Shown in pieces: positions 8,853 to 53,248 of a DNA stretch of 64,000 nucleotides; the first letter of the stretch is position 1, and every line of letters starts with the position of its first letter. Under the pieces are notes generated by a model. It did no database searches. It was not told the origin of the DNA and worked only from the letters and a program-made list of their open reading frames with translations. Source of the stretch: a virus; the IMG/VR virus record IMGVR_UViG_3300005573_001035, positions 64,001 through 128,000 of that record. The stretch is one strand, 5' to 3'. The position numbers were made by a program, and so were the translations under genes.

Positions 8853-11800
8853 TTATAGTCCAAACCAAGATCTTTGGACTGCTTCGGAAACATCTCCTGT
8901 TCCCCCGCCCCCACTAATTGTTACTCGAACTAGGCCACCCCCCACATCTTCCGCAACAACTGCGGTTCCCACAAAGTTTAGCCCCGAGATACTCGCAAGA
9001 ACTAAATTTCCTTCATCATATACCGCTATATCTTGACCTGCTCCACTATAGCCTGAGATTCCCGAGTAGCCACTCACGCCTGAGTAACCAGAATAACCAC
9101 TCGAACCAGGATTATCGCCCGAATAACCTGAGAAACCACTAAAACCCGAGTATCCCGAATAGCCACTTGAACCAGAATACCCACTGAAACCCGAGTATCC
9201 ATTAACACCACTATAACCTGAATAGCCACTAAAACCACTTATTCCTGAGTAGCCAGAGAAACCACTTGTTCCTGAGTAACCAGAATAACCAGAATAACCA
9301 CTCGAACCAGGGTTATCACCCGAGAATCCTGAGTAGCCAGAGAAACCACTTGTTCCTGAGTAGCCAGAGAAACCACTAAAACCCGAATACCCACTAAAAC
9401 CACTCGTACCTGTGGGGCCTTGAGGACCAGAATACCCAGAGAAACCACTCGTACCAGAGTAGCCAGAGAAACCACTTGTTCCTGAGTAGCCAGAATAACC
9501 GCTCGAACCCGGATTATCTCCTGAAAAGCCAGAATAACCACTAAATCCACTCTTCCCAGAGAAACCACTAAAACCAGAATACCCACTAAAACCACTCGTA
9601 CCTGTGGGGCCTTGTGGCCCAGAATACCCAGAGAAACCACTCGTACCAGAATAACCCGAGAAACCACTCACACCTGAGTAACCAGAATAACCGCTTGAAC
9701 CAGGGTTATCACCTGAGAATCCTGAGTACCCCGAAAACCCTGAGTATCCCGAATAGCCACTCGAGCCGGGATTATCGCCCGAGAATCCTGAGTAGCCTGA
9801 GAAACCACTCAAGCCACTGTAACCAGAAAAACCACTCGTACCAGAATACCCAGAAAAACCGCTTACGCCAGAATAGCCACTAAAACCACTCCTACCAGAG
9901 TAACCCGAGAAACCACTCACGCCTGAGTAACCAGAATAACCACTCGAACCAGGGTTATCGCCCGAGAATCCCGAGTAACCACTAAATCCACTCCTACCAG
10001 AGTAACCCGAGAAACCACTCACGCCTGAGTAGCCAGAATAACCACTTATTCCGGCGGGACCTTGAAGACCAGAATAGCCAGAGAAACCGCTTACGCCAGA
10101 ATAGCCACTAAAACCACTTATACCTGAGTATCCCGAATAACCACTCGAACCAGGATTATCGCCCGAGTATCCTGAGTAACCACTAAATCCACTCGTACCA
10201 GAATACCCCGAAAAACCACTTACTCCCGAGTATCCTGAGTAACCACTTATTCCAGCAGGACCCTGAGGACCAGAATACCCGGAGAAACCACTCGTACCTT
10301 CAGGACCTTGTGGGCCAGAGTACCCACTGAATCCACTAAAACCTGAGTAGCCACTAAAGCCGCTTGTTCCTTCAGGACCTTGTGAACCAGAATACCCACT
10401 GAATCCACTTACACCAGAGTAACCAGAGAAACCGCTTGTTCCTTCAGGACCTTGTGGACCGGAATATCCCGAGAACCCACTTACTCCTGAATAACCACTA
10501 AAGCCGCTAGTTCCTTGAGGACCCTGAGGTCCAGAAAAACCTGAGTAGCCAGAGAAACCACTTATTCCAGCGGGACCTTGAGGACCAGAATAACCCGAGA
10601 AACCACTCACTCCTGAGTAACCACTAAAGCCGCTTGTTCCTTCAGGACCTTGTGGACCGGAATATCCCGAGAACCCACTAAAACCTGAGTATCCTGAGTA
10701 ACCACTCGAGCCAGGGCTATCTCCAGAATAACCCGAGAATCCACTAAAACCTGAGTATCCTGAATAGCCACTCGAGCCAGGGCTATCTCCAGAATAACCC
10801 GAGAATCCACTAAAACCTGAGTATCCTGAATAGCCACTCGAGCCAGGCATATCGCCGCTATAGCCCGAGAATCCACTAAAACCAGAATACCCACTAAAAC
10901 CACTTATTCCTTCAGGTCCTTGTGGACCAGAGTAGCCAGAGAAACCACTAAAACCTGAGTAGCCAGAATAACCACTTATTCCAGTGGGACCTTGTGGTCC
11001 AGAATAACCCGAGAATCCACTAAAACCAGAATACCCACTAAAACCACTTATTCCTTCAGGTCCTTGAGAGCCAGAATAACCCGAGAAACCACTCACTCCT
11101 GAGTAGCCACTAAAACCAGAAACACCTTCTAACCCAGAATATCCTGAGAAACCGCTCGTACCAGAATACCCACTAAAACCGCTAGTTCCTGCAGGACCCT
11201 GAGGACCAGAATACCCGGAGAAACCACTTGTGCCCGAATAACCACTAAAACCAGATGTTCCCGAAACGCCTTGAGGTCCAGAATATCCTGAGAAGCCACT
11301 AAAACCAGAATACCCACTAAAACCGCTAGTTCCTGCTGGTCCTTGAGGTCCAGAATATCCTGAGAAGCCACTAAAACCTGAGTATCCTGAGTAACCACTC
11401 GAACCGGGTATATCGCCACTATAACCCGAGAATCCACTAAAACCAGAATACCCACTAAAACCACTAGTTCCTGCTGGTCCTTGAGGTCCAGAATACCCTG
11501 AGAATCCACTAAAACCTGAGTAACCACTCGAGCCAGCAGGGCCCTGGGGTCCTGAGAAACCGCTAGAACCTGAGTAGCCAGAGAAACCACTTATTCCAGC
11601 GGGACCTTGAGGACCAGAGTAACCAGAAAAACCACTAAAACCTGAGTATCCAGAATAACCACTTATTCCAGCGGGACCTTGAGGACCAGAGTAACCAGAA
11701 AAACCACTTGCGCCAGAATAGCCACTTGAGCCAGGAAGATCACCACTAAAACCCGAGTATCCCGAATAGCCACTCCACCCGCTTACTCCAGAATAACCTG

Positions 11801-12350
11801 AGTAACCACTAAGACCAGTTCCAGAATATCCACTAAAACCTGAGTAGCCACTCCACCCACTCACTCCAGAATAACCTGAGTAACCCGAATAGCCACTCCG
11901 CCCACTCGTTCCAGAATAACCCGAGAAACCACTTGGGCCTGCTGGACCTGGAGAACCCGAGTAACCCGAATAGCCACTCCGCCCACTCGTTCCAGAATAA
12001 CCTGAGTATCCAGACCATCCAGATCTACCACTCGTTCCAGAATAACCCGAGTAACCCGAATAGCCACTCCGCCCACTCGTTCCAGAATACCCAGAGAAAC
12101 CACTATAACCTACTGGACCTGGAGAACCCGAGTAACCAGACCATCCAGAGAAACCCATCCTACCACTATAACCACTCACTCCTGAGTAGCCACTAAATCC
12201 AGAGAAACCACTATGACCAGAAACTGCCTTCTTAGTAGAGGGAAAATAACTAGAACTAATAGAATAAGGTAAATCTGGAGCTTTCTCCTCTCCTGCAAAT
12301 CCAGGAGGAGTAGGTAAGGATATAGGAGGTTTAGTTGGGTTGTTTGCCAT
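8853..12350 (-). CDS. Long SG(F/Y) collagen-like repeat fibre protein
   Basis: About 1060 aa of G-X-S triplets with GPQGPxG collagen segments. C-terminal IAVYDEG...LNFVG...VRVTISGGGG motif resembles phage fibre domains. Confidence 0.8.
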   Translation of the reverse strand: MANNPTKPPISLPTPPGFAGEEKAPDLPYSISSSYFPSTKKAVSGHSGFSGFSGYSGVSGYSGRMGFSGWSGYSGSPGPVGYSGFSGYSGTSGRSGYSGYSGYSGTSGRSGWSGYSGYSGTSGRSGYSGYSGSPGPAGPSGFSGYSGTSGRSGYSGYSGYSGVSGWSGYSGFSGYSGTGLSGYSGYSGVSGWSGYSGYSGFSGDLPGSSGYSGASGFSGYSGPQGPAGISGYSGYSGFSGFSGYSGPQGPAGISGFSGYSGSSGFSGPQGPAGSSGYSGFSGFSGYSGPQGPAGTSGFSGYSGFSGFSGYSGDIPGSSGYSGYSGFSGFSGYSGPQGPAGTSGFSGYSGFSGFSGYSGPQGVSGTSGFSGYSGTSGFSGYSGPQGPAGTSGFSGYSGTSGFSGYSGLEGVSGFSGYSGVSGFSGYSGSQGPEGISGFSGYSGFSGFSGYSGPQGPTGISGYSGYSGFSGFSGYSGPQGPEGISGFSGYSGFSGFSGYSGDMPGSSGYSGYSGFSGFSGYSGDSPGSSGYSGYSGFSGFSGYSGDSPGSSGYSGYSGFSGFSGYSGPQGPEGTSGFSGYSGVSGFSGYSGPQGPAGISGFSGYSGFSGPQGPQGTSGFSGYSGVSGFSGYSGPQGPEGTSGFSGYSGVSGFSGYSGSQGPEGTSGFSGYSGFSGFSGYSGPQGPEGTSGFSGYSGPQGPAGISGYSGYSGVSGFSGYSGTSGFSGYSGYSGDNPGSSGYSGYSGISGFSGYSGVSGFSGYSGLQGPAGISGYSGYSGVSGFSGYSGRSGFSGYSGFSGDNPGSSGYSGYSGVSGFSGYSGRSGFSGYSGVSGFSGYSGTSGFSGYSGLSGFSGYSGFSGDNPGSSGYSGYSGFSGYSGFSGDNPGSSGYSGYSGVSGFSGYSGTSGFSGYSGPQGPTGTSGFSGYSGFSGFSGKSGFSGYSGFSGDNPGSSGYSGYSGTSGFSGYSGTSGFSGYSGPQGPTGTSGFSGYSGFSGFSGYSGTSGFSGYSGFSGDNPGSSGYSGYSGYSGTSGFSGYSGISGFSGYSGYSGVNGYSGFSGYSGSSGYSGYSGFSGFSGYSGDNPGSSGYSGYSGVSGYSGISGYSGAGQDIAVYDEGNLVLASISGLNFVGTAVVAEDVGGGLVRVTISGGGGTGDVSEAVQRSWFGL
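9043..12221 (-). repeat. Coding Gly-X-Ser triplet repeat with higher-order X-SG-F-SG-Y-SG nonapeptide
   Basis: Directly visible. Confidence 0.95.
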
Positions 12351-15568: not shown

Positions 15569-16438
15569 CTAGAATACCTCTCCTGTGAATATATTCAAAT
15601 GGCCAAGTACAATCCCAGTATGAACCGCCAGTTTGTAACCATTTTCAACAGCTTTCTTCATAAAGAATAAATCTTGAGTTGAGTAGGCAATCGTTCCAAC
15701 TTCGGTAATTTCATTCTGAGTCTTAAACCATTTACCATCTGTTTTAAGCCTAGGATCTTCGAAAAGAGTTCTCTTCATTAGAGTGAACCCCATTCCCATA
15801 CCATTACACTCAACAATGTCTCCTGGTTTCCAGTCCGTTCTTGGGGAAAAGTTATCTTCACCTGGAGTTCCCAAGATAAGAGGAGTAGGAGGAATTCCTT
15901 TTGTATGGTACAAGCCCCCAACAATATCATACTTATCGGTTAATTTCACAAGCTCTAAGAATGGGCCCTGTGTATTGGGCATAGATGGAATCAGTATATC
16001 ATCTTCAACAAACAAAAAGAATGGTATATTATCAAATGCTTTATTTCTTAAGATCTCCTCAATTACTACATTGTATGCATCTGCGACTTCGAAACCCACA
16101 GCAAACATTCTGAAAAAAGGATGGTTCAAAGGCTTTATAATCCTATCCCAAGAATCAACTACCATGGGATGGATTCCAGTTACGATAGTCGTTTCAACTT
16201 GCTCAACCTTACCGCAATTCTTACAAACAATATTCTTTCTCTTTACATACTTGCCCCTAGTAGCTACTATCATTATACAGCCTAGATTCTTAAAAGAATT
16301 CCCAAATAGAAACTTAGATCGTTTATCTTTTACGGAAGAATCTGAAACTAGATTTTCTATAGTGGTAATGGGGGCATTGGTAACTTTTTTCGGAATTCTC
16401 TTCTTAGATTGTCTCTTCATTTTCTGATTCTCGTCCAT
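15569..16438 (-). CDS. Glycosyltransferase (GT2-like)
   Basis: FLFVEDDIL, DIVGGLY, GMGFTLMKRTLFE and QDLFF...GYKLAVHTGIVLGHL motifs. Confidence 0.85.
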   Translation of the reverse strand: MDENQKMKRQSKKRIPKKVTNAPITTIENLVSDSSVKDKRSKFLFGNSFKNLGCIMIVATRGKYVKRKNIVCKNCGKVEQVETTIVTGIHPMVVDSWDRIIKPLNHPFFRMFAVGFEVADAYNVVIEEILRNKAFDNIPFFLFVEDDILIPSMPNTQGPFLELVKLTDKYDIVGGLYHTKGIPPTPLILGTPGEDNFSPRTDWKPGDIVECNGMGMGFTLMKRTLFEDPRLKTDGKWFKTQNEITEVGTIAYSTQDLFFMKKAVENGYKLAVHTGIVLGHLNIFTGEVF

Positions 16439-18077: not shown

Positions 18078-18081
18078 TTCT

Positions 18082-18876: not shown

Positions 18877-18906
18877 CTTACCAGAAAACCTCCTTCGACA
18901 GTTATT

Positions 18907-21900
18907 TTAGACAGCAGCTATAACCACCCTGCCATTAAATCTTGAATCTGGACTAGAACTAACATATATTCTTACATTATTAGAATCAATAATTGTAATC
19001 TGATCTGGAAATACAAGATTTCCAGTAGACGTATCCCACGTGCTAACTAACAGGGCTGAAGAATTAAGATTGTGAGTAAACGTTATGTAATAGTTACCGG
19101 TTCCAGAAGTCCACGATGTCGTATTATTGAACGTAGTTGTGTACCTAGAAAGAGATCCGCTAAAACCCGAGTAACCACTAAAACCACTTACTCCAGAGTA
19201 ACCACTAAAACCAGATTTACCACTAAAACCACTTACTCCAGAGTAACCACTAAAACCACTTACGCCTGAATAGCCCGAGTAGCCACTAAAACCAGATTTA
19301 CCACTAAAACCACTTACTCCATCTAGTCCTTGAGAACCAGAATAACCCGAGTAGCCACTAAAACCAGATTTACCACTAAAACCACTTACTCCATCTAGTC
19401 CTTGAGAACCAGAATAACCCGAGAAACCGCTTACGCCAGAATAGCCACTAAAACCACTTACTCCATCTAGTCCTTGAGAACCAGAATAACCCGAGAAACC
19501 GCTTACGCCAGAATAGCCACTAAAACCACTTACTCCATCTAGTCCTTGAGAACCAGAATACCCACTAAAACCACTTGTTCCCGAATACCCACTAAAACCA
19601 CTTGTTCCTTCGAGACCTTGAGAACCAGAATATCCTGAGAAACCACTTACGCCCGAATACCCACTAAAACCACTTGTTCCTTGAGGACCAGAATACCCCG
19701 AAAAGCCGCTCGTACCAGAATATCCACTATATCCACTCGTACCTGTGGGGCCTTGAGGACCAGAATACCCAGAGAAACCACTTACACCAGAGTAACCCGA
19801 AAAGCCACTTGTTCCAGAATACCCACTAAATCCACTAGTTCCCTCAGGTCCTTGAGACCCAGAATACCCACTAAAACCAGAAACACCTTGTGGTCCAGAA
19901 TACCCTGAAAAGCCACTTACACCAGAATACCCACTAAAACCACTTATTCCTTCCGGACCCTGAAGACCAGAGTATCCAGAGAAACCACTAGTACCACTTA
20001 TTCCAGAATACCCACTAAAACCACTTGTTCCCGAATACCCACTAAAACCACTTGTTCCCGCAGGACCTTGCAACCCAGAATATCCAGAGAAACCACTTTC
20101 GCCCGAATAGCCACTAAACCCAGATGTTCCTTCTGGTCCTTGAGAACCAGAATACCCCGAGAAACCACTTATACCTGAGTAGCCAGAGAAACCAGATTTA
20201 CCACTAACACCACTCGCCCCAGAATACCCCGAGAAACCACTTACACCCGAGTAACCACTAAAACCAGATGTTCCTTCTGGTCCTTGTGAGCCAGAATATC
20301 CCGAGAAACCACTTACACCCGAGTAACCACTAAAACCAGAAGTACCTTGTAGTCCAGAATACCCACTAAATCCACTCGTTCCTATGGGACCTTGTGGGCC
20401 TGAATATCCAGAGAAACCACTTACACCTGAGTAGCCCGAGAAACCACTTGTTCCTGTAGGACCTTGAGGACCCGAGTACCCACTAAAACCACTTTCACCC
20501 GAGTAACCACTAAAACCACTCACACCTGTAGGACCTTGAGGTCCAGAATATCCACTAAATCCACTTACACCAGAGTAACCAGAGAAACCACTTGTTCCTT
20601 CGGGTCCTTGAGGACCAGAATAGCCCGAGAAACCACTAAAACCACTCGTACCTGTTGGGCCTTGAGGTCCAGAATATCCACTAAATCCACTTACACCAGA
20701 GTAACCAGACAAACCACTTGGTCCCGAGTAACCACTAAAACCAGAAATTCCTTCTGGTCCTTGTGGGCCGGAATATCCACTAAAACCAGACCTCCCACTT
20801 ACACCCGAGTAACCCGAAAAGCCACTGGTTCCAGAATACCCACTAAATCCACTCGTTCCTGTAGGGCCTTGAGGACCAGAATACCCAGAGAAACCACTCG
20901 TACCAGAATAGCCACTAAATCCAGACGTTCCTTCTGGGCCTTGAGAACCAGAATACCCAGAGAAACCACTCGTACCAGAATAGCCACTAAATCCAGAAGT
21001 ACCCTGGGGTCCAGAATACCCAGAGAAACCACTTACACCAGAGTAACCCGAAAAGCCACTCGTCCCCTGGGGCCCTGGTTCTCCACTATATCCACTATAT
21101 CCACTCGTTCCAGTGGGACCCTGAGAACCAGAATATCCCGAGAAACCACTAACGCCCGAATAGCCACTAAAACCAGAAGTTCCAGTGGGACCCTGAGAAC
21201 CAGAATATCCCGAGAAACCACTAACGCCCGAATAGCCACTAAAACCAGAAGTTCCAGTGGGACCCTGAGAACCAGAGTAGCCACTAAATCCACTTAGACC
21301 CGAATAGCCACTAAATCCAGAAGTTCCCTGGGGTCCTGGTTCTCCACTATATCCACTATATCCACTCGTTCCAGCGGGGCCTTGAGACCCGGAATACCCA
21401 GAGAAACCACTCGTACCCGAATAGCCACTAAAACCAGAAGTTCCCTGGGGTCCTGGTTCTCCACTATATCCACTAAAACCAGATGTTCCCTCTGGACCCT
21501 GAGAACCAGAGTAGCCACTAAATCCACTTAGACCCGAATAGCCACTAAAACCAGATGTTCCAGTAGAGCCCTGGGGTCCGGAATAACCCGAGAATCCACT
21601 CGTTCCAGAATACCCACTAAAACCAGATGTTCCCTCTGGACCCTGAGAACCAGAATATCCCGAAAAGCCACTCGCGCCCGAATAGCCAGAGAAACCACTT
21701 GGTCCAGAATAGCCACTAAAACCACTTGTTCCCTGAGGTCCTGGTTCTCCACTATATCCACTATATCCACTCGTTCCTTGAGGGCCCTGACAACCAGAAT
21801 ACCCCGAAAAGCCACTCGTGCCCGAATAGCCAGAGAAACCACTTGTACCTGAGTAACCAGAAAAGCCACTTGGGCCAGAATACCCAGAGAAACCACTTAG

Positions 21901-23718
21901 ACCCGAATAACCACTAAAACCAGATGTTCCCTGAGGACCAGTCTCCCCACTGTATCCACTAAAACCAGACGTTCCCGAAACGCCTTGTGGACCAGAATAG
22001 CCAGAGAAACCACTTGTACCTGAGTAACCAGAAAAGCCACTTGGCCCCGAATAACCACTAAATCCGGATGTTCCCTGGGGTCCAGCTTCTCCACTATACC
22101 CACTAAATCCCGAGTAACCACTTAGACCAGACCTTCCACTATAACCACTAAAACCCGAATAGCCACTCGAACCAGGAGCATCCCCACTATAGCCCGAAAA
22201 GCCACTAAATCCCGAGTAACCACTTAGACCTGAGTAGCCACTAAAACCACTAAAACCCGAATAGCCACTGGTTCCCGAAGGCCCAGAAAAACCACTAAAT
22301 CCCGAGTACCCACTTAGACCAGGCCCCCCACTATAACCACTAAAACCCGAGTAGCCACTGGAACCTGAGTAACCAGACAATCCGCTAAATCCTGAGTACC
22401 CACTATAACCACTAGGCCCTGGGGGTCCAGAGGAACCACTATAACCGCTCCTGCCCGACTGGCCACTAGCTCCAGAATAACCGCTAAATCCACTCTTGCC
22501 AGAGAAACCACTCAACCCACTTACACCTGCAGGACCTGGCTGCCCAGACCAACCACTAAAACCTGAGAAACCAGACAAACCAGGTACTCCGGGTAAGCCA
22601 CTCCAACCAGAGTATCCACTCCATCCAGAAAAACCACTTTGTCCACTAAAACCACTAAAACCTGATTGGCCTGGTTCTCCACCACCGCCACTACCGCCAC
22701 TACCTCCTTCTCCCCCACCACCACCGCCGCCACCAGTACCAGCCGAAGAACCAGGGCCACTATACGAAGGAGGAAGATACGAAGGTGGAGGTTGCTTATC
22801 TCCTGCGAAACCTGGAGGAGCAGGCATAGCCTGAGGAACTGAACTAGGGGTTGAAGGCGTGGATGGAGTATGAGTTCTCTCAGAAAAGGATTCCCAGGGA
22901 CAATTTCTATCTCCTATTGGATTAGCTCTTTCTGCATATTTGGCTAGTCCTGTTTGATCACATCTCTTACGACCATCAGTGTTTATGTCTTTGTCAGCTC
23001 GAAGATTAAACTCATCTTTGGTCCATATTCGAATCTCACCATCAGCAATAATATGAATCTTCTTTCCAACTTTCAGAAATAAGTTTCCTTCTGTTTCAAG
23101 GTGAACATCGTCTTTAAATTTCGCATGGAATTGTCTCTTAGTAATATCAACCCGGAAGAAATCTCCAAGATACGTTCTAAATAGAAATTGTTCCTGTTCT
23201 TCTCTCTCATCTAAAACAAGGACGGTTTGATTATCATCAACTTTACAGATAGATGCTATGTCACCAGCAGGCGGGTTAGTCAGGAGGCGCTTTTTCCCTG
23301 TAATTTCCCAGCGCTCATCTTGAGGGTCGTCAGATATGACAATCGTTCTGCCTTCTGGAGATTTGAAGAGAACCCACTTATCTTCATACTTTCCGACTTG
23401 GCACTCAGGTAAGACTTTCGAAGATTCAATTTCCAGGGATGCAAAATAGTAGGGTCTGTTTGCATTTCCCTGCTCAAAAAAGACCCAAACCCAAGACCCT
23501 TTTCTAGGAACTAAGCAAGCACCATAGTACCAATTCTCAGGGTTCGCTTCTAAGTTTCTTCCACCCAGATACGTATTAGCTGGACGGGCCCAGATTGCCT
23601 TTTCTTTATCTAGCTCAGGCATCAAAGCTGGAATCCAGACCTTGACCCTGCCAAATTGCTCTGGGTCTCTATTATCTATGACTTCTGCTCTGAAGAAGCC
23701 ATTCAGAAGTTGCTCCAT
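18907..23718 (-). CDS. gp5/VgrG-like baseplate central spike (OB-fold) fused to ~1170 aa SG(F/Y) collagen-like repeat and a C-terminal THNL-type fibre domain
   Basis: FRAEVIDNRDPEQFGRVKVWIP...WARP...VPRKGSWVWVFFEQGNANRPYY is a typical gp5 N-terminal OB-fold. It is followed by a beta-helix-like segment, a Pro/Gly linker, the repeat, and YITFTHNLN...VFPDQITIIDSNNVRI. Confidence 0.85.
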   Translation of the reverse strand: MEQLLNGFFRAEVIDNRDPEQFGRVKVWIPALMPELDKEKAIWARPANTYLGGRNLEANPENWYYGACLVPRKGSWVWVFFEQGNANRPYYFASLEIESSKVLPECQVGKYEDKWVLFKSPEGRTIVISDDPQDERWEITGKKRLLTNPPAGDIASICKVDDNQTVLVLDEREEQEQFLFRTYLGDFFRVDITKRQFHAKFKDDVHLETEGNLFLKVGKKIHIIADGEIRIWTKDEFNLRADKDINTDGRKRCDQTGLAKYAERANPIGDRNCPWESFSERTHTPSTPSTPSSVPQAMPAPPGFAGDKQPPPSYLPPSYSGPGSSAGTGGGGGGGGEGGSGGSGGGGEPGQSGFSGFSGQSGFSGWSGYSGWSGLPGVPGLSGFSGFSGWSGQPGPAGVSGLSGFSGKSGFSGYSGASGQSGRSGYSGSSGPPGPSGYSGYSGFSGLSGYSGSSGYSGFSGYSGGPGLSGYSGFSGFSGPSGTSGYSGFSGFSGYSGLSGYSGFSGFSGYSGDAPGSSGYSGFSGYSGRSGLSGYSGFSGYSGEAGPQGTSGFSGYSGPSGFSGYSGTSGFSGYSGPQGVSGTSGFSGYSGETGPQGTSGFSGYSGLSGFSGYSGPSGFSGYSGTSGFSGYSGTSGFSGYSGCQGPQGTSGYSGYSGEPGPQGTSGFSGYSGPSGFSGYSGASGFSGYSGSQGPEGTSGFSGYSGTSGFSGYSGPQGSTGTSGFSGYSGLSGFSGYSGSQGPEGTSGFSGYSGEPGPQGTSGFSGYSGTSGFSGYSGSQGPAGTSGYSGYSGEPGPQGTSGFSGYSGLSGFSGYSGSQGPTGTSGFSGYSGVSGFSGYSGSQGPTGTSGFSGYSGVSGFSGYSGSQGPTGTSGYSGYSGEPGPQGTSGFSGYSGVSGFSGYSGPQGTSGFSGYSGTSGFSGYSGSQGPEGTSGFSGYSGTSGFSGYSGPQGPTGTSGFSGYSGTSGFSGYSGVSGRSGFSGYSGPQGPEGISGFSGYSGPSGLSGYSGVSGFSGYSGPQGPTGTSGFSGFSGYSGPQGPEGTSGFSGYSGVSGFSGYSGPQGPTGVSGFSGYSGESGFSGYSGPQGPTGTSGFSGYSGVSGFSGYSGPQGPIGTSGFSGYSGLQGTSGFSGYSGVSGFSGYSGSQGPEGTSGFSGYSGVSGFSGYSGASGVSGKSGFSGYSGISGFSGYSGSQGPEGTSGFSGYSGESGFSGYSGLQGPAGTSGFSGYSGTSGFSGYSGISGTSGFSGYSGLQGPEGISGFSGYSGVSGFSGYSGPQGVSGFSGYSGSQGPEGTSGFSGYSGTSGFSGYSGVSGFSGYSGPQGPTGTSGYSGYSGTSGFSGYSGPQGTSGFSGYSGVSGFSGYSGSQGLEGTSGFSGYSGTSGFSGYSGSQGLDGVSGFSGYSGVSGFSGYSGSQGLDGVSGFSGYSGVSGFSGYSGSQGLDGVSGFSGKSGFSGYSGYSGSQGLDGVSGFSGKSGFSGYSGYSGVSGFSGYSGVSGFSGKSGFSGYSGVSGFSGYSGFSGSLSRYTTTFNNTTSWTSGTGNYYITFTHNLNSSALLVSTWDTSTGNLVFPDQITIIDSNNVRIYVSSSPDSRFNGRVVIAAV
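19156..22666 (-). repeat. Coding Gly-X-Ser / GPQGPxG triplet repeat
   Basis: Directly visible. Confidence 0.95.
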
Positions 23719-41935: not shown

Positions 41936-43123
41936 CTATGGTTTTTTCGTGCTATTGGGAGTGGGGAAGAAGCATAGCTTATTCCTACAATATAGAACCA
42001 AGTACAACGCAATAAACCATCGGAATAAAGCCATTGTTTGGGAACTTATAGTATAGCCCCTAGGGTATAAGGCTAAGAGAAGATCTGTACAGAGTTCATC
42101 GATTTGTTGCTTAAAGTAAATAGGTTTCTTTGAAGTTTTAACTGATAGCAATCTTCGAGTAAAATCTAACATTTCTGGATTGCAAAATAGTCGATAGTCT
42201 TTAATCTCAGAAAATAACAAAGACAAAATAATTTCTAACTTATCTGTATAGGCGTGGGTTGATAATTTCTGGATAGATTTTCTCGCTAAATCAATTCCAA
42301 TTCCAGTTCTATTCTTAGCCTGAATCAACGCTTCCTCGTCTATCGATGAGTAAATTGTAATCCTTTCCACTATGCTTCGAATAAAAGCTTTTCTTCGAAC
42401 CTCGTTTGTAATATCTACCTGGATACCGAAAGGAGCCTGCTCTGGACTATAATCGGTTGTGACGGTGGTTCCAAGTTTCTTCCTTTGAATATCATAGTAC
42501 ATAGCCAGAAACGATTTCAAAGAAATTGACACCCTAGTTCTAGTCTCCCTCACAAGAAAACTAAACAGATTCGCACCCAAGATCCTATCTTTCTTGTTCA
42601 AGAAAGTCTTAAATTCTAGTTCATACTTCCTAGAGATTTCGGAAGCTAAGTGGTCTAAGGCTCCACTAATACCTCCTTTCTTTCTAAAGAGATGGGTTTT
42701 AGGAATGAGTTGTAAGGCGAGGGAAAAAGCATCTGGGTTACAGTACTTAAGGCTCTTATGCAAGAAATTCGAATAATGTAAAATTACAAGTAGAAGCAGC
42801 GAAGTCTTATACATGCTCATATCACCAACTGACAAAAAAGAGCCAGCCAAAGAAACTAAAAGATAAGAATCTGGATTTCGTTCTAGTTTCCAATGTTCTT
42901 TAATTTTACTTCCAGCAAAAAAGGAATCCATCGAGTTGAGGATAGCCGAAGGACTAATTCCTAACTCCCTAGTAAGTTGCAAAGAAAATTCTCTAAACTT
43001 TGGGTAGAAACACGCTCCAGATAAAGAGGCAAGATCCGATGCAGCTTTCTTAACAATTAAGATTCGTACATTTCTTTGGGTCGATATAGGAGAAGAAACA
43101 ATTTTTGTAATTAGATCAAGCAT
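41936..43123 (-). CDS. Hypothetical phage protein
   Basis: 395 aa helical ORF. Confidence 0.6.
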   Translation of the reverse strand: MLDLITKIVSSPISTQRNVRILIVKKAASDLASLSGACFYPKFREFSLQLTRELGISPSAILNSMDSFFAGSKIKEHWKLERNPDSYLLVSLAGSFLSVGDMSMYKTSLLLLVILHYSNFLHKSLKYCNPDAFSLALQLIPKTHLFRKKGGISGALDHLASEISRKYELEFKTFLNKKDRILGANLFSFLVRETRTRVSISLKSFLAMYYDIQRKKLGTTVTTDYSPEQAPFGIQVDITNEVRRKAFIRSIVERITIYSSIDEEALIQAKNRTGIGIDLARKSIQKLSTHAYTDKLEIILSLLFSEIKDYRLFCNPEMLDFTRRLLSVKTSKKPIYFKQQIDELCTDLLLALYPRGYTISSQTMALFRWFIALYLVLYCRNKLCFFPTPNSTKKP

Positions 43124-43189
43124 CTTTTTTTGACTCTCTCTTTTCTATATGTGTGTAGTCTAGCATATGTATACTGTACATAAAAGTTC

Positions 43190-43984
43190 TTACGATTTAA
43201 CTTGGCTAGATAATACGGTAATCGTTATGTCACTTTCTGTAAAATATAAGAACTCAGGAACATATTCTAACAGTTCCTGCTCGGATAAATCCTCTAGAGT
43301 ATAATTATAAAAGATATTGCATCGTGGTTCAATAAGCCTAACGTGCTCCACCCCATCTATGTTATGACAGACATCAATAATTTCAGATCGAAACAGGCTT
43401 TTCTGAATTCCGAAACGAGACTTAAAGGACTTAACCAAAGTTTCCTTCACAGTAGGAATCAATAGAACCTCCGAAACTGGAGACAGAGGTTCCCTAACAA
43501 GTTCCAAAGAAATCTTTAGAGGAATCGTAAACTCTGGAACTACCCACCCTAGATCACCGAAAACGTATTTCTTCTTTTTACTTCGTACGTACACAATGTC
43601 ATCTACCTTTGGCTGTATGAAGCTCCATTGCATAGTTGGAGTTACTTGCTCTAGCTGAGCGATCATATCTTTCTTACCTTGCCATGGTCCACCCTCAGCG
43701 CCCGAGACAATGTAACGATCTCCTACGGTTCCGCTTGAAGGAACTTGCTTTAAGTCCATATCCAACACATCTTGCTGTGTAACTCGATTGTATTGCATAT
43801 TTCGCATAGTACCATAACAATTCGCAAATTTTAAGTTTACGAAATCAGTTAACATCCTGTACTTAGAAAATGTTGCGCTCTTTAAGAGTTTCTGAATAAT
43901 ATTTAGCTCAAAAGCCTTCTTGTCGATGGAATCATAATAAGATTTTAGAATAACAGGAACATCGTAGACGATGATTTTTGACAC
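43190..43984 (-). CDS. Baseplate wedge C-terminal-like protein with DUF2793-like insertion
   Basis: GDRYIVS...GPWQGK...WSFIQP...VYV...YVF..GW (DUF2793-like). FG...LFRSEIIDVCHNIDGVEHVRL resembles the baseplate J/gp6 C-terminus. Confidence 0.6.
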   Translation of the reverse strand: MSKIIVYDVPVILKSYYDSIDKKAFELNIIQKLLKSATFSKYRMLTDFVNLKFANCYGTMRNMQYNRVTQQDVLDMDLKQVPSSGTVGDRYIVSGAEGGPWQGKKDMIAQLEQVTPTMQWSFIQPKVDDIVYVRSKKKKYVFGDLGWVVPEFTIPLKISLELVREPLSPVSEVLLIPTVKETLVKSFKSRFGIQKSLFRSEIIDVCHNIDGVEHVRLIEPRCNIFYNYTLEDLSEQELLEYVPEFLYFTESDITITVLSSQVKS

Positions 43985-44008
43985 TAGATAGTTCCTCCTT
44001 CTTGTTTT

Positions 44009-47000
44009 TTATTGTAGTATGTACTTAGTTCCAATAGCTAACTTAGACCAATCTCCTAGCGAGTAGTAAGAACCGAATGGAACATCCCAGTAAACAAAGA
44101 AATCAGAACTTGGAATTTGCTCAGTTTTAGTCCCATCCTGAGTTCTGTAGGTTATTCGGAGATTAACTCCTGTTGATTGGTCTAGAACAAAAACGGTATT
44201 AGAATTATCTTCTTGCGTTTCTATGAAAAGGACAATTGGAAATACATCCCACGTAAAAGGAATAGTAACGGGAGAGGTAGAATCGAGAACATAACTCACT
44301 AATTCCTGTATTACTGGAGTAATATCAATGGTTAGTTCGATACTTGTGGTTGCGTCATTAAAAACAACCTCTTTCTCTACATAGGTGCTGGTTTTACTTC
44401 TAGAAATGAAATCTTGTGGAGAACTAAATAAATCTGGATGAGAACTCAGCTCAGCTCGGATTCGAAAAGTAACTTTTCGGTCCTCTTCCACTAAATCTTG
44501 GTCTAAGTTATTGCCCCCTGAGATAGGAACTAGGTCTATGGAATCAAATTTAGGAGTTGCTTCTTGAACTTTCATATTGATCTCGGCTTTTGTTAAATCT
44601 TGTATCCAAGACCAAGTGTAGCGAATATATTCGGTCGAAGTTTGAATCACTTCTTTCAGTCCTGTTGTTGCTTGGGTCCAACCCCTGTTGACACCCCAGT
44701 CAGACATGGAGCACGCAAGATTTAGAGAACTTCCATCAAACCAAAACACGTTGTTAAGATTATCCTCTCCAGCTGAACTATAGGCCATAGCGCCACCGTA
44801 TCTAGAGTTCGAGCAACTAGCACCACCAGCAATTCTATCTAAAAGGGTCCCAATAAAACTTGCAGATCCGGAAGAAACTAATGAAAATTCCTCCATATCA
44901 AAATAATATTCATCTCCCGTTCCATCAGTTATTCCTCCAAATAAAGTGCAAGTATAAGGACTATCGTACACGTATGACCCAGCTCTGCTAGCTTGTAAAG
45001 ATCCCCAATAAGATCCCACTCCTTCAGATCCCGCATACAAAACCTCAATATCCGATACATTCGCCACAATACTGGTAGTATCAAAAAATTGTGTCACTCC
45101 CCCAATAACAAAACAATCTCCAACATAACTTTCAGCCGCGTTAGAAATACCTCTCGCATATGAAAGAGACGCCGTACTGGTAGTTAGCGTTCGATCATCA
45201 TAGAGATCCAAAACCACGTCCGTAAATAATGAGTTATCTACTCTAAAACCACCAACAACAGTAATCTTACCATACGCAGTAGTAAAAGAAACTGGCCAAA
45301 GAAGGCCATTACTTAAACTAGTAGTCCATGTAGACCAAGTATCATCTGGCAGATAATAGAACGTTACTTCTAAAACTGAGTCGGTTAGATCTGGAACCGT
45401 CGTGAATGCACTAAAAGAATCAACCCAACTATGTGATCCACCAATAAAAACCGCCTCGGAGCCTCCAGAAATGCATGAGGCAGTCCCAGCAAGTCTTCCA
45501 CCCCAGTATAGGTCATTGTTTGTAACCAAGACCTCTTTAGTGGTAAAAGATATGATAGAGAGTCGATTAAAAGAGTAGCCACCTAATTCTGTGCATCCTC
45601 CATGAAAAATCCCAACATCGTACCAATGGACAGTCTGGACTTCTTCCGCTCTCCATAGATTTAATGGCCCAATATTGTATTCTCGGCCGTAAGGGGCTCC
45701 AGAAAAACGAAACCCCAAAGTGCTGCTCGATTGAACTCGAAAAGTGCTTCTCATCACAGGAAACAAGTCTACAGATAATCGAAAATTTGTAAGGGCTTTC
45801 GTTACTAGTTCGGAACTAATAATGGAAGTTGAATCCTCGACTACTAGAAAACCAAAATTAATCTCAGCTTGAATCTCTTCTCCTGTAATAGCCCTAGGGG
45901 TTGGAACAAGGTCAATATTGGTAAAAGATGTTTCAAAGAATTCGTCTGACCCCTCGCTAAGTTCAATTTCTGAGTTCGTATCCAAGAATTTAATCTTGCA
46001 AAACCACTTATAAGAATAATCTTCATTCGTTAATTCTGGAAGCTCATTTTGGTCTCTTTTCACATTAACTCGGAACTTTGTGGGACTTCCAGAATATGTA
46101 ACAAAAGATATAAGGCCTGACTCATAATCCGGATTTTGATATATGACATTGGGACTTATGATTTGATTTTTAAGAGGAAGAAGATACTTGAACTGGTTAG
46201 ACCTAGTACTGAATACTCCTGCAAAGATCGAAGTGTAGAATTCTCCATCAATTTTAAATACCTGATCGGAAGGAATAAAGAAAAACTCGTTACCAGGATC
46301 TAGACCAAAAGTAAAGTTAAAAGCAAGCTTCTCAGTCCTAAAAGGAACTAAGGTTTCTTGCATCTTAGACGTGATGATATCGTATGTTTCTGATTTCGCA
46401 ATTATGTATTCTTGGATATCATTTATCTGAGTATCAGATCTTTTAAGAATAGGAATACACTGATCATAAGAGGTTTCTCGATCCACAACTTGAAGATTCT
46501 TATAGTCATTCGTAGAAACAAGCTTAAAAATAGTGCTTATATGTTGAAGAGAATTATAGCGAACCGTTTCTAGATCTTCTTCATCTTTCCCACCAGAACT
46601 AGGAAATGGATTCCCTACCATCAAAGATACGGTCCTAGAAACGGGACCATCTTGAACCTTAACTTGGCTTTGTAAACTAGTTATAGAATATGCTGGAACA
46701 TTACCCATGGATCCCATAGTTTCATAGATCTTAACTCGGACTTTAGATCCAGGGGGAGGTTGTTTTCCTATAAGAGAGTTGCCAAAAAAGATTCGAACTA
46801 GTTTTTCATTTCCCCCAGTAGAAACTCTTTTGTAGACAAAACCCTCGCTATCTGATAAAAGAAGAAACAAACTACTATACTTCTTATAAGGAATCCAAGT
46901 TGCCGAACCGGTTTCTAAGACCTCAACCTCAACATCATATAATTGATTAGAATATAAGAAATCCATCGTTAAGAATTGGTATGGTTTTATATCAGAGGGA

Positions 47001-47602
47001 ATTGTGGTAAAGTAAACTTTCTCATCTAATTGTTTAATAGAAGTTGAGAATATAACGTACGGAGCATCATTCGTGGTGGTATCTAGAACAAACGGCAAAG
47101 ATTGAGATTCAGATGTATCTGGATCTATCTCGGTTACACTCTTGGGGTAGCCTCCAGAAATTTCTATTAGAATATCTTTAGGAATTCGAAATACAATGTC
47201 GTTCGAATTGTATTGAGAGGTAACAGCGGTTCCTTTTGGAATTTGAATTGTAATCTGAGGTGAAGCAAAATCTAATCTTAGAGCAATGTTTAGTTGCGTT
47301 TCGCTATAATATGCATTTTTAGGAGAGTACGCAACAAATGCTGCCAAATTATAGATGCTCTCTGGCAGCTTTGCTTGGGTAAGAAAAAACTCTCTGTACG
47401 AAACCAAAGAATAAAAAAGCTGGTTAATAGATAGTTCAGATAGAATCTTACATATAGAATAAATGACCGGAGTCTTAGAAACATCAATATTCTCAACTTC
47501 TAAGTAACTTTTTACATAGTCCCTAATGTAAGAATAGATTGTATCTTTATTTAGTGCAATCTCCTCGCTAACTAGCGAGACAGGAAAAGTTTTGTCAGAC
47601 AC
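44009..47602 (-). CDS. Baseplate wedge gp6-like protein with Kelch-like propeller extension
   Basis: EFFLTQA...SIYNLA, IFFGN..IGKQPP.GS, ETMGSMGNV and SGGKDEE...LVSTNDY. Later (I/V)GG Kelch-like repeats. Confidence 0.8.
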   Translation of the reverse strand: MSDKTFPVSLVSEEIALNKDTIYSYIRDYVKSYLEVENIDVSKTPVIYSICKILSELSINQLFYSLVSYREFFLTQAKLPESIYNLAAFVAYSPKNAYYSETQLNIALRLDFASPQITIQIPKGTAVTSQYNSNDIVFRIPKDILIEISGGYPKSVTEIDPDTSESQSLPFVLDTTTNDAPYVIFSTSIKQLDEKVYFTTIPSDIKPYQFLTMDFLYSNQLYDVEVEVLETGSATWIPYKKYSSLFLLLSDSEGFVYKRVSTGGNEKLVRIFFGNSLIGKQPPPGSKVRVKIYETMGSMGNVPAYSITSLQSQVKVQDGPVSRTVSLMVGNPFPSSGGKDEEDLETVRYNSLQHISTIFKLVSTNDYKNLQVVDRETSYDQCIPILKRSDTQINDIQEYIIAKSETYDIITSKMQETLVPFRTEKLAFNFTFGLDPGNEFFFIPSDQVFKIDGEFYTSIFAGVFSTRSNQFKYLLPLKNQIISPNVIYQNPDYESGLISFVTYSGSPTKFRVNVKRDQNELPELTNEDYSYKWFCKIKFLDTNSEIELSEGSDEFFETSFTNIDLVPTPRAITGEEIQAEINFGFLVVEDSTSIISSELVTKALTNFRLSVDLFPVMRSTFRVQSSSTLGFRFSGAPYGREYNIGPLNLWRAEEVQTVHWYDVGIFHGGCTELGGYSFNRLSIISFTTKEVLVTNNDLYWGGRLAGTASCISGGSEAVFIGGSHSWVDSFSAFTTVPDLTDSVLEVTFYYLPDDTWSTWTTSLSNGLLWPVSFTTAYGKITVVGGFRVDNSLFTDVVLDLYDDRTLTTSTASLSYARGISNAAESYVGDCFVIGGVTQFFDTTSIVANVSDIEVLYAGSEGVGSYWGSLQASRAGSYVYDSPYTCTLFGGITDGTGDEYYFDMEEFSLVSSGSASFIGTLLDRIAGGASCSNSRYGGAMAYSSAGEDNLNNVFWFDGSSLNLACSMSDWGVNRGWTQATTGLKEVIQTSTEYIRYTWSWIQDLTKAEINMKVQEATPKFDSIDLVPISGGNNLDQDLVEEDRKVTFRIRAELSSHPDLFSSPQDFISRSKTSTYVEKEVVFNDATTSIELTIDITPVIQELVSYVLDSTSPVTIPFTWDVFPIVLFIETQEDNSNTVFVLDQSTGVNLRITYRTQDGTKTEQIPSSDFFVYWDVPFGSYYSLGDWSKLAIGTKYILQ

Positions 47603-47658
47603 AATTCTTTCTCCCCCTAGTTTAAGAAAACTTATGGAACTTTCATTTTACCTCTTTT

Positions 47659-50600
47659 CTACATACTACAAGCATCTGGGTTCAAAGATCCAGTAATATC
47701 GATATCTAAATCTGCTATCTGCTGAGTTAAAGACCCAGAAGAAAAATCAATAGTAAAAACAGAGCTAACATAATTGCTGGTTCCAACGGGTTTTCGGACC
47801 ATACCACAACCTTTATCCAGAGAACGACTAGCCTGAGAACTAGAAACTGCCCCTAACCCATAAGGCTGAGAGGAAGACAAGAAACTAAGTTGTAGCAATC
47901 CAGATGCAATTTCTCCAGTTGCGAAAGAAATTTCATCCATGTAACTATAAGTCCAAGAACTAGATCCAGTTAAGGCCCCTAGCAAGTAAGAAGAAAACCT
48001 ATTGCTCATGCTCCTAGTAATGCAAGCTAAAGATAAAGATCCCATCTGTTGCACAGAGGTATAGTTATTAACAAACTTCTCACAAGTCGAAAGATACAAA
48101 AGATTAGGGCTTACACTACTTACACCCCCAAGAATGTAAAAAGATGGATTAGAATCATAATCAAAATTACAAGCAATGGCATGTCCAGCTCTTGCTCCTA
48201 AACAAAGATTGCCAAATGCAGTGCTTGAAGACCAGATACCAATCTTAGAAATATTACTTAGAGTTGTAGTTCCAGAGCCTCCCACGCCCCCACAATGGAA
48301 ACCAATCTCATTGGTGCCAGGAGAGTACATTTGGGCAGCAGCCCATTTAGTGGTAGCGGTGAGAAGTGGGTATCCAGAACTCACAACATAATTGGAATTA
48401 AGTTTCTGCCCAGTGGTTGTAGAAACCGTCCCACTTGAATCGGAACTCCCGCCAAGCAAAAGAACTATATCGGAATAAGTTTTATTTGTAGCTGCCAACC
48501 CGTACCTAGTACCTCCCGAACTAGCAAGAGTCCCTGTTTTAGATTGGGTATACAGATTATAAGTTGTGAAATTCCAGGAACTAGATGACTGAATCCCCGG
48601 ATGCACAAACTTTGTGTAAAGCATATCAAGATCTAAAACAAGGATATTCTGAGATAGAACCATTCTAATGGTTTCTCTTGAAAGACCAAGTACAAATTGC
48701 TTCCTCCCACGACCAATCTCAGAATAGTACGTTGGATCAGCAAAACTTGGTGTGATTGTTTCCTGGCCAGAAGCTAAATTTCCAGCATCTTCAATAAATG
48801 CATACTTGGCGCTTTGTAAGGAAAAAGAAACAATATCTTCTTGATCTTTAGCTTGGGGAGCATAGTAATTAAGCCAGAAGAATACTCCCCCATCCGCAAC
48901 GCTAGTTGGTTGCCAAGAGACAGTTGCTGACATATCAGAAAGCTGGGCTAGGTGAAAGTTGTTACATTGAAATGGGTCTACTAAGATGGTATCTGAATAT
49001 TCTCCTATATATTGCCCATAGATTGCGCAGACCCGAATATACTGAGGTTTTACCTTGTTCCTTACTATGTATGAGGTATCGGGTATGAAATAAGTATTCA
49101 AAGCAGTTTGAAAGTCAGGATCTTCAGCAACTTGAACTTTATAAAGACTCGCCCCAAGGACTGGGTTCCAAGATAAAGAAATACTTCCATCAGAAACTTG
49201 AACTGAGGCTTGAAGATTCTCAACCCTCCCTAAGCCAAGAAACAATCTAGTGGGTTGGGCTGGAGTGACTGCAAGATCGGTTTCTCCATTCTGAGGAGTC
49301 TTAGATGTTATAAGTGCGTATCTTTCAACCAAAGGAACAAGAGGAATGGTGACAGACGTTTCTTCTATATTCTCATACTTAGATAGATAGTTTTGAGGAG
49401 AAACGGAGGTGGAATCTGAGAGGTATATACAGTAGGAAACTTTGCTTTTAGAATCTAGTATGGGGTCCCAGAATAAAGTTACCGTCTTAGCTTGCGTATT
49501 ATAGACTGGATCTTTAAGGGAGGGAGAAGGGGGAGGAGAAATAATAGGACTTAGCATCATCGTTTTAAGATTCATCGTAATTATACAATCCCACGAATAA
49601 GTGAACAATTTCTGGGTACCTTGTAAATAGATGCTCAGTTGGAAATGAAGGTTTCCATCTGGAAAGTAACTATAATGAGGAGTAAGAATTGTAAATTTCT
49701 TATCCCCCGCAAAGTTAATAGATCCAAGAGTCTTATTCCACTCTTTGACGAATAGGGTGGCAGTTGTCTGGTTGAAAGTTGGTTCTGTGGTGTCATACAT
49801 GGCATCGATAACTACGGTGCCATCTTGATTCCTACTAATATGAATCTTACTAACCGATAAAGCATACTCTTGAGGGTAGAAATTTTGCATAGAATCAGGA
49901 GATAGTTCTATTTCAATATCTGTAACTTTGTACGAGTACTCACAACACCCATTTACATAATCAAAGCTAAGATCAAAGGGAAGAATATACTCATCGTTAT
50001 CATCCAGGGCAACAATCTGCGACCCTTGAGATAAAGATGAAGGTTTAGATGTGATATCTATTTGTACACTTCTAAGAGGCAACCAAGCAGAGTCGGAACT
50101 GGTTCCATCTACATAGTTACAAGTGCTGGATAAGTAACAAAACACGCTGTTTCTATGAATTGGAGTTGTTTTGGCGATTACATACGAGTCAGAAAATGGA
50201 AAATCTTCCAACAAAGAAGGCATATTCTCAAAATCAAGATTCGTAACCAATCTAGACAACTCGGTTATACTATCAATAGCTTGGCGCCTGGTAATTTCTG
50301 GTAGCTCAGCGTCTTCTCCACCACTAGCAGGAAACGGATTCGTAATAGAGAATTCTAGAAGTTGCAATTCCTGGGTTACTGGATCTTGAACAAAGATTCG
50401 ATCACAGCTCTTTATTGAACCGGCAATAACATTTCCCGCTGACCCCATGGTCTCCTCAACGGTAACTCGGACAGTAGATCCAGGCTGGGGTTGTTGACCG
50501 AGAAGGCTATTGCCAAAATAGATCTTAAGATTATTTCCAGATCTTCTAACTACGTATCCCCGATCATAAGGGGACATAAGGAATAAGCTATAGAATTCTG

Positions 50601-51285: not shown

Positions 51286-51428
51286 GTTCTATAACCCCTC
51301 TCTCATGTAAGTGAAAAGTCCTCTTCTCTCCCCTAATTGGAAATCAAAGGGGTGTGTGTTCCCGGTAGAAATATATATAAAGTTCTAGGTCAAAAAAATA
51401 TACAAAAAATAAATCTTTGTAAAGAATC

Positions 51429-52085: not shown

Positions 52086-52124
52086 GTATCCAAGCTCCTT
52101 TACATAAAGAAAGAAAGAGTCTTG

Positions 52125-52709: not shown

Positions 52710-52736
52710 TGATGTATTTTTCCTCCGCTTACTTCT

Positions 52737-53177: not shown

Positions 53178-53248
53178 GTTTGGTTCTTACTTTATGCCCT
53201 CTCTCTATCTTTTCTCAGATTGAGATTTTTGTATTTGCTTTCTAGTAT

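Follow-up and report, generated by a model that had tools for sequence, protein, structure and literature searches.

The subject of this analysis is a single open reading frame (ORF) of a virus, located on the minus strand of a 64,000-nucleotide (nt) stretch of DNA (positions 64,001 to 128,000 of IMG/VR record IMGVR_UViG_3300005573_001035; hereafter, the window), in which a module of the baseplate central spike family is joined to a very long collagen-like repeat. The ORF encodes a spike module, a linker, a Gly-X-Y repeat in two blocks and a small C-terminal tip (Table 1), and the spike, repeat and tip are encoded in frame as one real gene. A first-pass annotation had read a gp5-type oligonucleotide/oligosaccharide-binding (OB) fold, a beta-helix, a linker, a repeat and a terminal domain in one ORF at this position, and this arrangement was confirmed. 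Direct counting gave 62 + 336 = 398 triplets, or 1194 residues, where "about 390" and "~1170" had been estimated.

A Pfam scan of the whole protein returned Collagen (PF01391; E 2.5e-162, 527 bits) and Phage_base_V as the only families, and no enzyme domain was found in the extension. A search of PHROGs matched aa 6-95 to "baseplate hub subunit and tail lysozyme" (phrog_430, E 4.7e-10). Among the 311 stop-to-stop ORFs of the window (>=50 aa), the spike-collagen gene was the sole match to a profile of its spike family (E 1.6e-107).

Table 1. Features of the spike-collagen gene and of its stand-alone paralogue, in window coordinates
Feature	Position	Strand	Basis
Whole ORF: spike, linker, collagen-like repeat and tip; 1603 aa plus stop	18907..23718	-	ORF list
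Spike module, aa 1-271; OB fold, then short beta-helix region	22906..23718	-	AlphaFold2, Foldseek, VIA-align, family profile
PF04717 Phage_base_V OB domain, aa 10-94	23437..23691	-	Pfam E 4.2e-7, 30.7 bits, cut-off 23.8
P-I-G-D-R, aa 267-271; usual C-terminal end motif of the spike family, fusion point here	22906..22920	-	Comparison of relatives
Linker, aa 272-328; Pro/Ser/Thr-rich, then PPGFAG, then poly-Gly run	22735..22905	-	Sequence
PPGFAG motif, aa 301-306; common to linker and N-terminus of the stand-alone collagen-like paralogue	22801..22818	-	BLASTP
Internal Met298; position matching the paralogue start codon	22825..22827	-	Alignment
Gly-X-Y block 1; 62 triplets, aa 329-514	22177..22734	-	Direct count
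P515; single extra residue breaking the triplet register (G-D-A-P-G)	22174..22176	-	Direct count
Gly-X-Y block 2; 336 uninterrupted triplets, aa 516-1523	19150..22173	-	Direct count
C-terminal tip, aa 1524-1603; small all-beta domain (predicted), 80 residues	18910..19149	-	PHROGs, single-sequence model
Stand-alone collagen-like paralogue; 1165 aa, PPGFAG lead-in	8853..12350	-	BLASTP, triplet count

The spike module was modelled with AlphaFold2 (aa 1-271) from an alignment of the query with 66 relatives (alignment A1, 67 rows), which gave a mean predicted local distance difference test score (pLDDT) of 91.4, with values of 93-98 across aa 160-270. Foldseek comparison of this model with the PDB yielded 31 matches at E<=1e-3. 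The leading matches listed were spikes of contractile systems, comprising AlgoCIS, the Anabaena contractile injection system (CIS), the VgrG of type VI secretion systems, phage P1 gp5, PVC, AFP, phiKZ and R2 pyocin, and P2 gpV, phi92 gp138 and T4 gp5 followed at E 2e-3 to 1e-2. With VIA-align, residues 1-255 of the model were superposed on residues 370-581 of the AlgoCIS spike (7aef_q; Z 12.8, 212 aligned residues, rmsd 3.0) and on residues 3-209 of P1 gp5 (9vzk_q; Z 11.9). Central spikes scored between Z 9 and 12.8, and generic OB folds took over under Z ~8.

In VgrG-like chains, the model aligned with the C-terminal OB/helix half (~360-580) and not with the gp27-like half, and no Tal protein was present among the listed structural matches. 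A match was also found at the level of sequence, between the spike-family profile and VgrG 8gra_I (E 2.3e-17). Pfam, AlphaFold2, Foldseek, VIA-align and the VgrG profile match thus agree with the initial reading of the N-terminal part, and the assignment of the modelled fold of aa 1-271 to the gp5/gpV/VgrG-type central spikes, with an OB domain and a beta-helix, is solid. Every solved relative of this type known to us is trimeric, and by analogy the module is expected to form a trimer. In gpV and gp138, the apex of the spike holds a His-bound iron.

The family to which the module belongs is large. A phmmer search with aa 1-300 against 1.84 billion cluster representatives gave 838 relatives at E<=1e-3, 111 of them at E<=1e-30. 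Most relatives are proteins of 270-350 aa that stop at the tip of the helix, and the short ones end in the motif P-x-G-x-R, usually followed by Asp or Asn and one more residue. In its full form, P-x-G-x-R-[D/N]-x, the motif might serve in contact with a cap, in metal binding or as a signal for processing.

The position of this motif was examined in 153 database relatives, with the motif required to lie beyond residue 150, and 82 qualified. In 52 of the 82, the motif lay <=6 residues from the C-terminus, and the other 30 were extended by 9-976 residues past it; an exact match was missing in 71 of the 153, fragments and variant motifs being among these. A relative was also encoded at 54 loci in IMG/VR, with the motif present at 47. 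At 45 of these 47 loci the motif was <=7 residues from the C-terminus, whereas the remaining two ran on, by 139 and 309 residues; at the seven loci without it, one relative ran off its contig. These counts answer a check proposed in the first-pass annotation: relatives do stop at a PIGDR-type motif. The accompanying statement that spikes normally end in a needle is only in part true of this family, given the 30 extended proteins among the 82 motif-bearing database relatives. In the spike-collagen protein, the fusion point lies at the motif, and 1332 residues follow it.

Extension past the motif is thus a recurrent feature of the family, with varied content. In a Pfam scan of 37 extended relatives, two had PF21277, a C-terminal domain like that of VgrG3, one had Amidase_3, and the rest had no match in the extension. 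A peptidoglycan hydrolase therefore follows the motif in three of 37, which fits the comparison with evolved VgrGs that the first-pass annotation had drawn. A quick maximum-likelihood tree with a midpoint root was built from the query and 78 relatives having the motif and >=230 residues up to it. On this tree, the states "extended" and "ends at motif" changed at least 12 times, with five changes forced by well-supported branches, and the row nearest to the query was an unextended protein with 51% identity. Together, the changes on the tree and the unextended nearest row suggest that extensions have been gained or lost many times and that the collagen extension is the lineage's own.

No collagen was found in the 153 relatives: the longest Gly-X-Y run was five triplets among the 149 listed representatives and two to three among four long relatives from a word-based search. 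Nor was there an ORF with >=10 consecutive triplets within 7 kb of the spike gene at any of the 54 IMG/VR loci. Searches for the same fusion in close relatives were likewise negative in IMG/VR with the single protein (two distant loci), in metagenome contigs (six loci, the best with 49% identity on a 2-kb contig) and in GTDB genomes (no loci). The four long relatives (P0002-P0005, 1425-1893 aa) have in common a different extension of ~1,500 residues that is rich in Ser, Asn and Asp and closes in a conserved C-terminal globular domain without an assigned function.

The joining of the spike module to the linker was examined in other assemblies. The stretch 22500-23500 is present in five hot-spring metagenome runs from five studies, the best two of which may be the source samples, and Logan contigs (not reads) from four runs of four studies were compared across 22600-23760. 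X1 record 1 (664 nt) and X2 record 9 (928 nt) covered 22600-23220, from spike through linker to the first triplets, with zero differences. Three further contigs were gapless across 22906: X2 record 10 (22763-22995) with 23 substitutions, X3 record 18 (22802-22961), from a different study, with one, and X5 record 26 (22873-23119) with six. Contigs of four hot-spring runs, including those of diverged strains, therefore cross the junction without insertions or deletions, and a chimeric assembly at this point, a concern raised for the region at the outset, is unlikely.

Passage from the linker into the repeat was covered by X1 record 2 (22601-22898), which carried 16 substitutions and six small poly-Gly deletions with a net loss of 24 nt, in frame. 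Of the listed strain substitutions, 30 of 39 were synonymous in the frame of the gene and none created a stop. In the linker, 7 of 11 were synonymous, with the non-synonymous ones gathered at aa 278-294 (4/5 non-synonymous there). The poly-Gly deletions lie at 22693-22729 in a co-occurring strain of one run, where the spacer varies in length and the frame is kept.

Inspection of the repeat reveals a strict pattern of unusual composition. In block 2, Gly is kept at 336 of 336 positions through four codons (GGT 148, GGA 101, GGC 53 and GGG 34), with 13 different residues at X and nine at Y, and Ser at Y draws on AGY (126) as well as TCN (138) codons. Because Gly and Ser are kept despite this codon drift, both residues are under selection, and the periodicity is neither chance nor recent copying. 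Position X of block 2 is 51% Phe/Tyr, 13% Pro and 2.4% Asp/Glu, and position Y is 79% Ser, 12% Gln and 0% Lys/Arg; over the repeat region of 1193 residues there are 59 Pro and 33 charged residues. The X/Y composition of known stable collagens (Pro at X, charged pairs, Gln/Thr at Y) is not matched. Protein-language-model look-alikes were all collagen-repeat clusters (top score 0.92), a result used as a lead only. The estimated length of the repeat, if triple-helical, is 1194 x 0.286 nm = 341 nm.

The tip contains the string ITFTHNLN. Its PHROGs matches were to the C-terminal ends of two families of phage virion or fibre proteins (phrog_16122, E 7.4e-8; phrog_14293, E 6e-6), and a single-sequence model was all-beta with seven strands, at a low-confidence pLDDT of 55.9. 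Word-based searches among longer proteins and proteins of similar length gave no relatives of the tip, and tblastn against GenBank phages gave only matches at E>=0.01 over half of the domain. A PDB sequence search returned chance hits only, Atlas scores were below 0.9, no Pfam family matched, and Foldseek of the low-confidence model against BFVD gave no match at E<=1e-3. The best BFVD matches (E 5e-3 to 1e-1), again a lead only, were to C-terminal parts of phage tail and collagen-repeat proteins. From these comparisons, the tip is best described as a small putative C-terminal domain of the kind that ends other phage virion proteins.

The origin of the extension is suggested by the linker, which matched the first 40 residues of the stand-alone collagen-like protein at 8853..12350 (BLASTP, E 4e-9, 36% identity), with the start codon of the latter aligned to Met298. 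Among the window ORFs, PPGFAG is confined to these two, a third ORF having GFAG only. The stand-alone protein is in the same Gly-[Phe/Tyr]-Ser style, with 14 Gly-X-Y blocks parted by one-residue G-D-x-P-G breaks, and has no recognisable anchor domain, its PPGFAG lead-in aside. Given the shared lead-in and the linker alignment, the most economical history is the fusion of a fibre gene of this kind to the 3' end of the spike gene; judged by sequence, the extension most likely arose from a collagen-fibre gene like that at 8853..12350.

An internal start at Met298 was considered as the source of the main product and rejected because the 25 nt before this codon are pyrimidine-rich (nine purines) and contain no Shine-Dalgarno-like word. 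Such a word precedes 32 of 47 gene starts in the window. A third collagen-like protein (1965-3992, minus strand, 675 aa) has four short triplet blocks (aa 16-144), followed by a region of ~500 residues that is rich in Gly, Ser and Ala; it has no family match.

The setting of the gene is that of a phage with a contractile baseplate. The window encodes gp25 (PF04965, E 2.3e-8), a PF12322 "T4 baseplate" protein (E 3.4e-13), two ~1200-aa gp6-like wedge proteins and one tube-like protein, as well as a terminase, a UvsX/DnaB-like protein and an NrdD fragment. The PDB sequence search and NCBIfam gave no support for hub, sheath or tape-measure assignments, and no PAAR family member was seen among the scanned window ORFs at the thresholds used. 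Promoter and terminator counts in a scan of 16000-25500 were like those of shuffled sequence.

Eight genes lie upstream of the spike in an order that related loci share; between 22 and 46 of the 54 loci have a given gene, many loci being short. By contrast, neither the tip nor any of seven downstream window genes tested had a match at any of these loci. The conserved upstream side and the unmatched downstream side indicate that the 3' end of the spike gene borders a lineage-specific region. Part of the upstream block (23766-31257, minus strand) encodes a KH-domain protein, a Cas4-like nuclease and the UvsX/DnaB-like protein, and its order is kept on phage contigs of 80-277 kb from many samples, pointing to a large, mostly unannotated phage group.

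In GenBank, phage homologues of the spike have only 22-29% identity and are mostly from Erwinia and Dickeya jumbo phages, in which the homologue is a stand-alone protein of 262 aa that has PF04717 together with gp5 C-terminal repeats. Of four proteins scanned in Dickeya phage AD1, only the homologue had these features; the protein annotated there as "VgrG" is named for a VgrG3-like lysozyme domain.

The mechanism proposed for the gene is as follows. In a large hot-spring phage, uncultured and equipped with the baseplate of a contractile tail, the first 271 residues would form the central spike, and the chain would continue past P-x-G-x-R through a flexible linker of 57 residues into the 398 triplets and the 80-residue beta tip. 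Three chains, held by the spike, would wind into one collagen-type triple helix, which would leave the spike tip in line with the tail axis and end in a small trimeric adhesin. Such a central tail fibre would capture the host from a distance, ahead of baseplate landing and sheath contraction. We infer the trimer, the triple helix, the extended shape, the location on the virion and the adhesin or tether function from the features described above.

That the spike-borne collagen acts as an axial host-catching fibre is the favoured explanation of the gene, and we give it roughly even credence; the virus probably carries a central host-catching line ~340 nm long. The fuller proposition, in which this tether is a proline-poor, uncharged (Gly-[Phe/Tyr]-Ser)n triple helix that is stable at the temperature of a hot spring, is held more tentatively. 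The additional claim that the filament exceeds a tail of ~200 nm is unsupported. It depended on taking the 1376-aa ORF at 36652-40782 (plus strand) as the tape measure, and the tape-measure call is a single 35-residue PHROG match at E 7.7e-4. This ORF gave nothing in Pfam, NCBIfam or PDB sequence searches, and it adjoins the terminase on the strand opposite to the tail genes.

Several points weigh against an axial fibre of this kind. Puncture is mechanically awkward for a needle that bears a rope on its tip, and the fusion is seen in a single lineage. The evidence at the junction consists of contigs, and X1 and X2 may be source samples. Within the 3.6-kb collagen block, exact internal repeats reach 116 nt (50 nt in comparison with the paralogue), and the copy number in a 72-nt array at 19268-19675 could be off. 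At the far end of the protein, the tip model is low-confidence and sequence relatives of the tip were not found. A second spike or a PAAR cap may also be encoded outside the 64-kb window.

The composition of the repeat, which comes from a hot-spring sample, is a further difficulty. Aromatic residues at X and Ser at Y are reportedly among the least favourable on the host-guest scale of Persikov and Brodsky. In work on host-guest peptides, residues at X and Y shift stability by up to ~20 degrees (PMC7824840). The repeat is also far from known viral collagens, which according to Ghosh et al. (PMC3368898) have Pro at 22% and Asp/Glu at 35% of X and Lys/Arg at 38% of Y. In the same work, the collagen-like proteins EPclA and EPclB of E. 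coli O157:H7 prophages resemble the present repeat in having phage Gly-X-Y segments, which in their case are flanked by trimerisation modules, and they are trimeric, triple-helical and thermostable although unmodified. They differ in being short, in belonging to side fibres and in composition (Pro at 48% of X, Lys/Arg at 31% of Y, no Phe or Tyr).

The alternative that survives best, although we consider it unlikely, is that no single extended triple helix forms. The repeat would instead be a folded-back bundle of the polyglycine-II type, a disordered, sticky, low-complexity [G/S]-[Y/F]-[G/S] brush or a heavily O-glycosylated Ser-rich mat, and the extension would fall far short of 340 nm, serving as a coat or glue for the baseplate. 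A composition atypical of collagen and sharply unlike that of published viral collagens fits this alternative, as does the hot-spring source, and the retention of Ser through two unrelated codon families suggests that Ser matters, for example as sugar sites. A weak glycosyltransferase-like ORF also lies nearby, at 15569..16438. Set against this, block 2 runs for 336 triplets without a break or a turn-forming irregularity, whereas a folded-back bundle needs regular turns. The strictness of Gly despite codon drift and the Pfam Collagen score of 527 bits argue in the same direction, and the language-model look-alikes, as a lead, do so too. Finally, the repeat is joined to a module that is by analogy trimeric, as nucleation of a triple helix needs.

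A somewhat less probable alternative to the axial fibre is that the fusion protein is cut near P-x-G-x-R or in the linker during assembly, so that the virion carries an ordinary spike and the collagen fibre is released or is attached elsewhere through the PPGFAG lead-in, like the stand-alone paralogue. T4 gp5 is cleaved during assembly, which we count in favour of this alternative. The likeness of the linker to the lead-in of a separate collagen protein (E 4e-9) is also compatible with cleavage, and the mostly non-synonymous variants at aa 278-294 (four of five) are as for a loosely constrained spacer. Neither a protease site nor a protease gene was identified, however, and extended relatives bear enzymes right after the motif, like evolved VgrGs, which work uncleaved.

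There is a small chance that the N-terminal module is a second copy, either a trimerising anchor for another fibre or an alternative spike on some particles, with the true spike encoded outside the window. Only 64 kb are in view, and ~30 kb separate the gene from those of the hub, gp25 and the wedge (41936..54314). The family profile nevertheless matched this gene alone among the 311 window ORFs, and the upstream neighbourhood, kept in up to 46 of 54 loci, marks it as the lineage's core spike gene in its usual place. The homologue in Dickeya phage AD1, alone in having PF04717 among the four proteins scanned, also counts against a second copy.

Two explanations are much weaker. It is very improbable that the extension is cargo that the spike takes along into the cell envelope, in the manner of evolved VgrG effectors, and not a receptor-binding fibre: peptidoglycan hydrolases do occupy the same position in relatives, but Pfam found no enzyme domain in the extension, the PHROGs matches of the tip are to C-terminal ends of virion and fibre proteins of phages, and the collagen-like segments of phages are known as fibre shafts. 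Least credible of all is an assembly or sequencing artefact joining a 271-aa spike gene to a separate collagen gene. In its favour, the repeat DNA is repetitive, the window contains three collagen-like genes, Met298 aligns with the paralogue start, and the assembly is a short-read metagenome whose source may be the two runs with the best coverage. Against it, the junction is in unique sequence outside the repeats, and position 22906 is crossed without gaps by five contigs drawn from four runs in as many studies, two of these contigs being 3-10% diverged. The poly-Gly deletion variant also keeps the frame (24 nt), variants are mostly synonymous, and no ribosome-binding word precedes Met298.

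An axial fibre borne by the spike can be compared with several known systems. The fold of aa 1-255 is shared with P2 gpV, phi92 gp138, P1 gp5, the R2 pyocin spike and T4 gp5. T4 gp5 has a lysozyme domain, which the spike-collagen protein lacks, and stand-alone phage spikes lack the 1332-residue extension. Evolved VgrGs carry enzymes after the beta-helix. Those such as VgrG3 (PF21277) resemble the present protein in having an OB and beta-helix spike with functional cargo past the helix, and differ in that the spike-collagen protein apparently lacks a gp27-like half and has no enzyme domain, its cargo being a fibre.

Among the closest described counterparts is Gp111, the central spike/needle of Bacillus phage Vp4 (Herelleviridae; PMC11406892). 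Gp111 has 2,033 aa; its residues 22-306 are an R2-pyocin-like piercing module (4S37), after which come coiled coils and carbohydrate-binding modules. It is alike in that an N-terminal myophage spike carries a C-terminal part of great length for which host binding has been proposed, and unlike in that this part is made of coiled coils and carbohydrate-binding modules and not of collagen. The same source describes the parts of Gp111 as two proteins, Gp188 and Gp186, in phage Deep-Blue, and this split pair parallels the spike-collagen fusion and the stand-alone collagen paralogue.

Collagen-like segments on the tail axis have a parallel in siphophages. The Tal proteins of S. thermophilus siphophages have C-terminal extensions of ~550-1,200 residues (PMC9437275); in them, the trimeric protein at the centre of the tail tip is prolonged along the axis by a part with collagen-like triple-helix linkers. 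These proteins are gp27-like and belong to non-contractile tails, and the linkers are short and placed between carbohydrate-binding modules, unlike the 336 triplets found here. A literature search, which did not reach supplements, returned no paper joining a myophage spike to collagen. Extended myophage spikes have thus already been described (Vp4 Gp111), and the new part is the very long, compositionally odd, collagen-like cargo.

To our knowledge, textbook myophages carry only a needle on the tail axis. If correct, the proposed mechanism would give a contractile phage a very long axial fibre for seeking receptors, a new mode of host finding for myophages. It would also raise the question of the fate of the fibre at puncture, since shedding, bending aside or retraction of the fibre would have to precede piercing by the needle. 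More broadly, the end motif of the spike family, whose 838 relatives at E<=1e-3 are mostly unannotated, appears to be a hot-spot for the repeated attachment of different cargo, which helps to read the host-range modules of large uncultured phages.

The repeat itself is a natural, strongly selected Gly-X-Y sequence from a hot habitat that runs against the usual rules of triple-helix stability. If it forms a triple helix, it would be a lead for recombinant, hydroxylation-free, heat-stable collagen materials and would represent a new sequence solution for thermostable collagen, perhaps through Ser glycosylation or aromatic stacking.

Several other genes of the window, all on the minus strand, are of note. 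Directly downstream of the spike-collagen gene lies a pair of paralogous ORFs (17244-18876; 277 and 264 aa, 42% identical) with no match in Pfam, PHROGs, NCBIfam or the 54 related loci; they are candidate fibre partners, chaperones or extra receptor-binding proteins. Between the collagen genes, at 14888-16438, are a weak methyltransferase-like ORF (Pfam E ~0.009, below the cut-off) and, at 15569..16438, the ORF with a weak glycosyltransferase-like match (phrog_34859, E 2.4e-4); speculatively, these could modify the Ser-rich repeats. The 175-aa protein at 12461-12988 has matches to dual-specificity/tyrosine phosphatases (best E 1.1e-4, below the cut-off). The adjacent ~1200-aa wedge proteins (44009-51285) both open with a gp6-like wedge module (phrog_219, E ~1e-20) and have long C-terminal parts without an assignment. 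Three further paralogous ORFs at 4068-8443 (515, 462 and 460 aa; 24-37% identical over local segments, no family match) may be a diversified host-recognition set.

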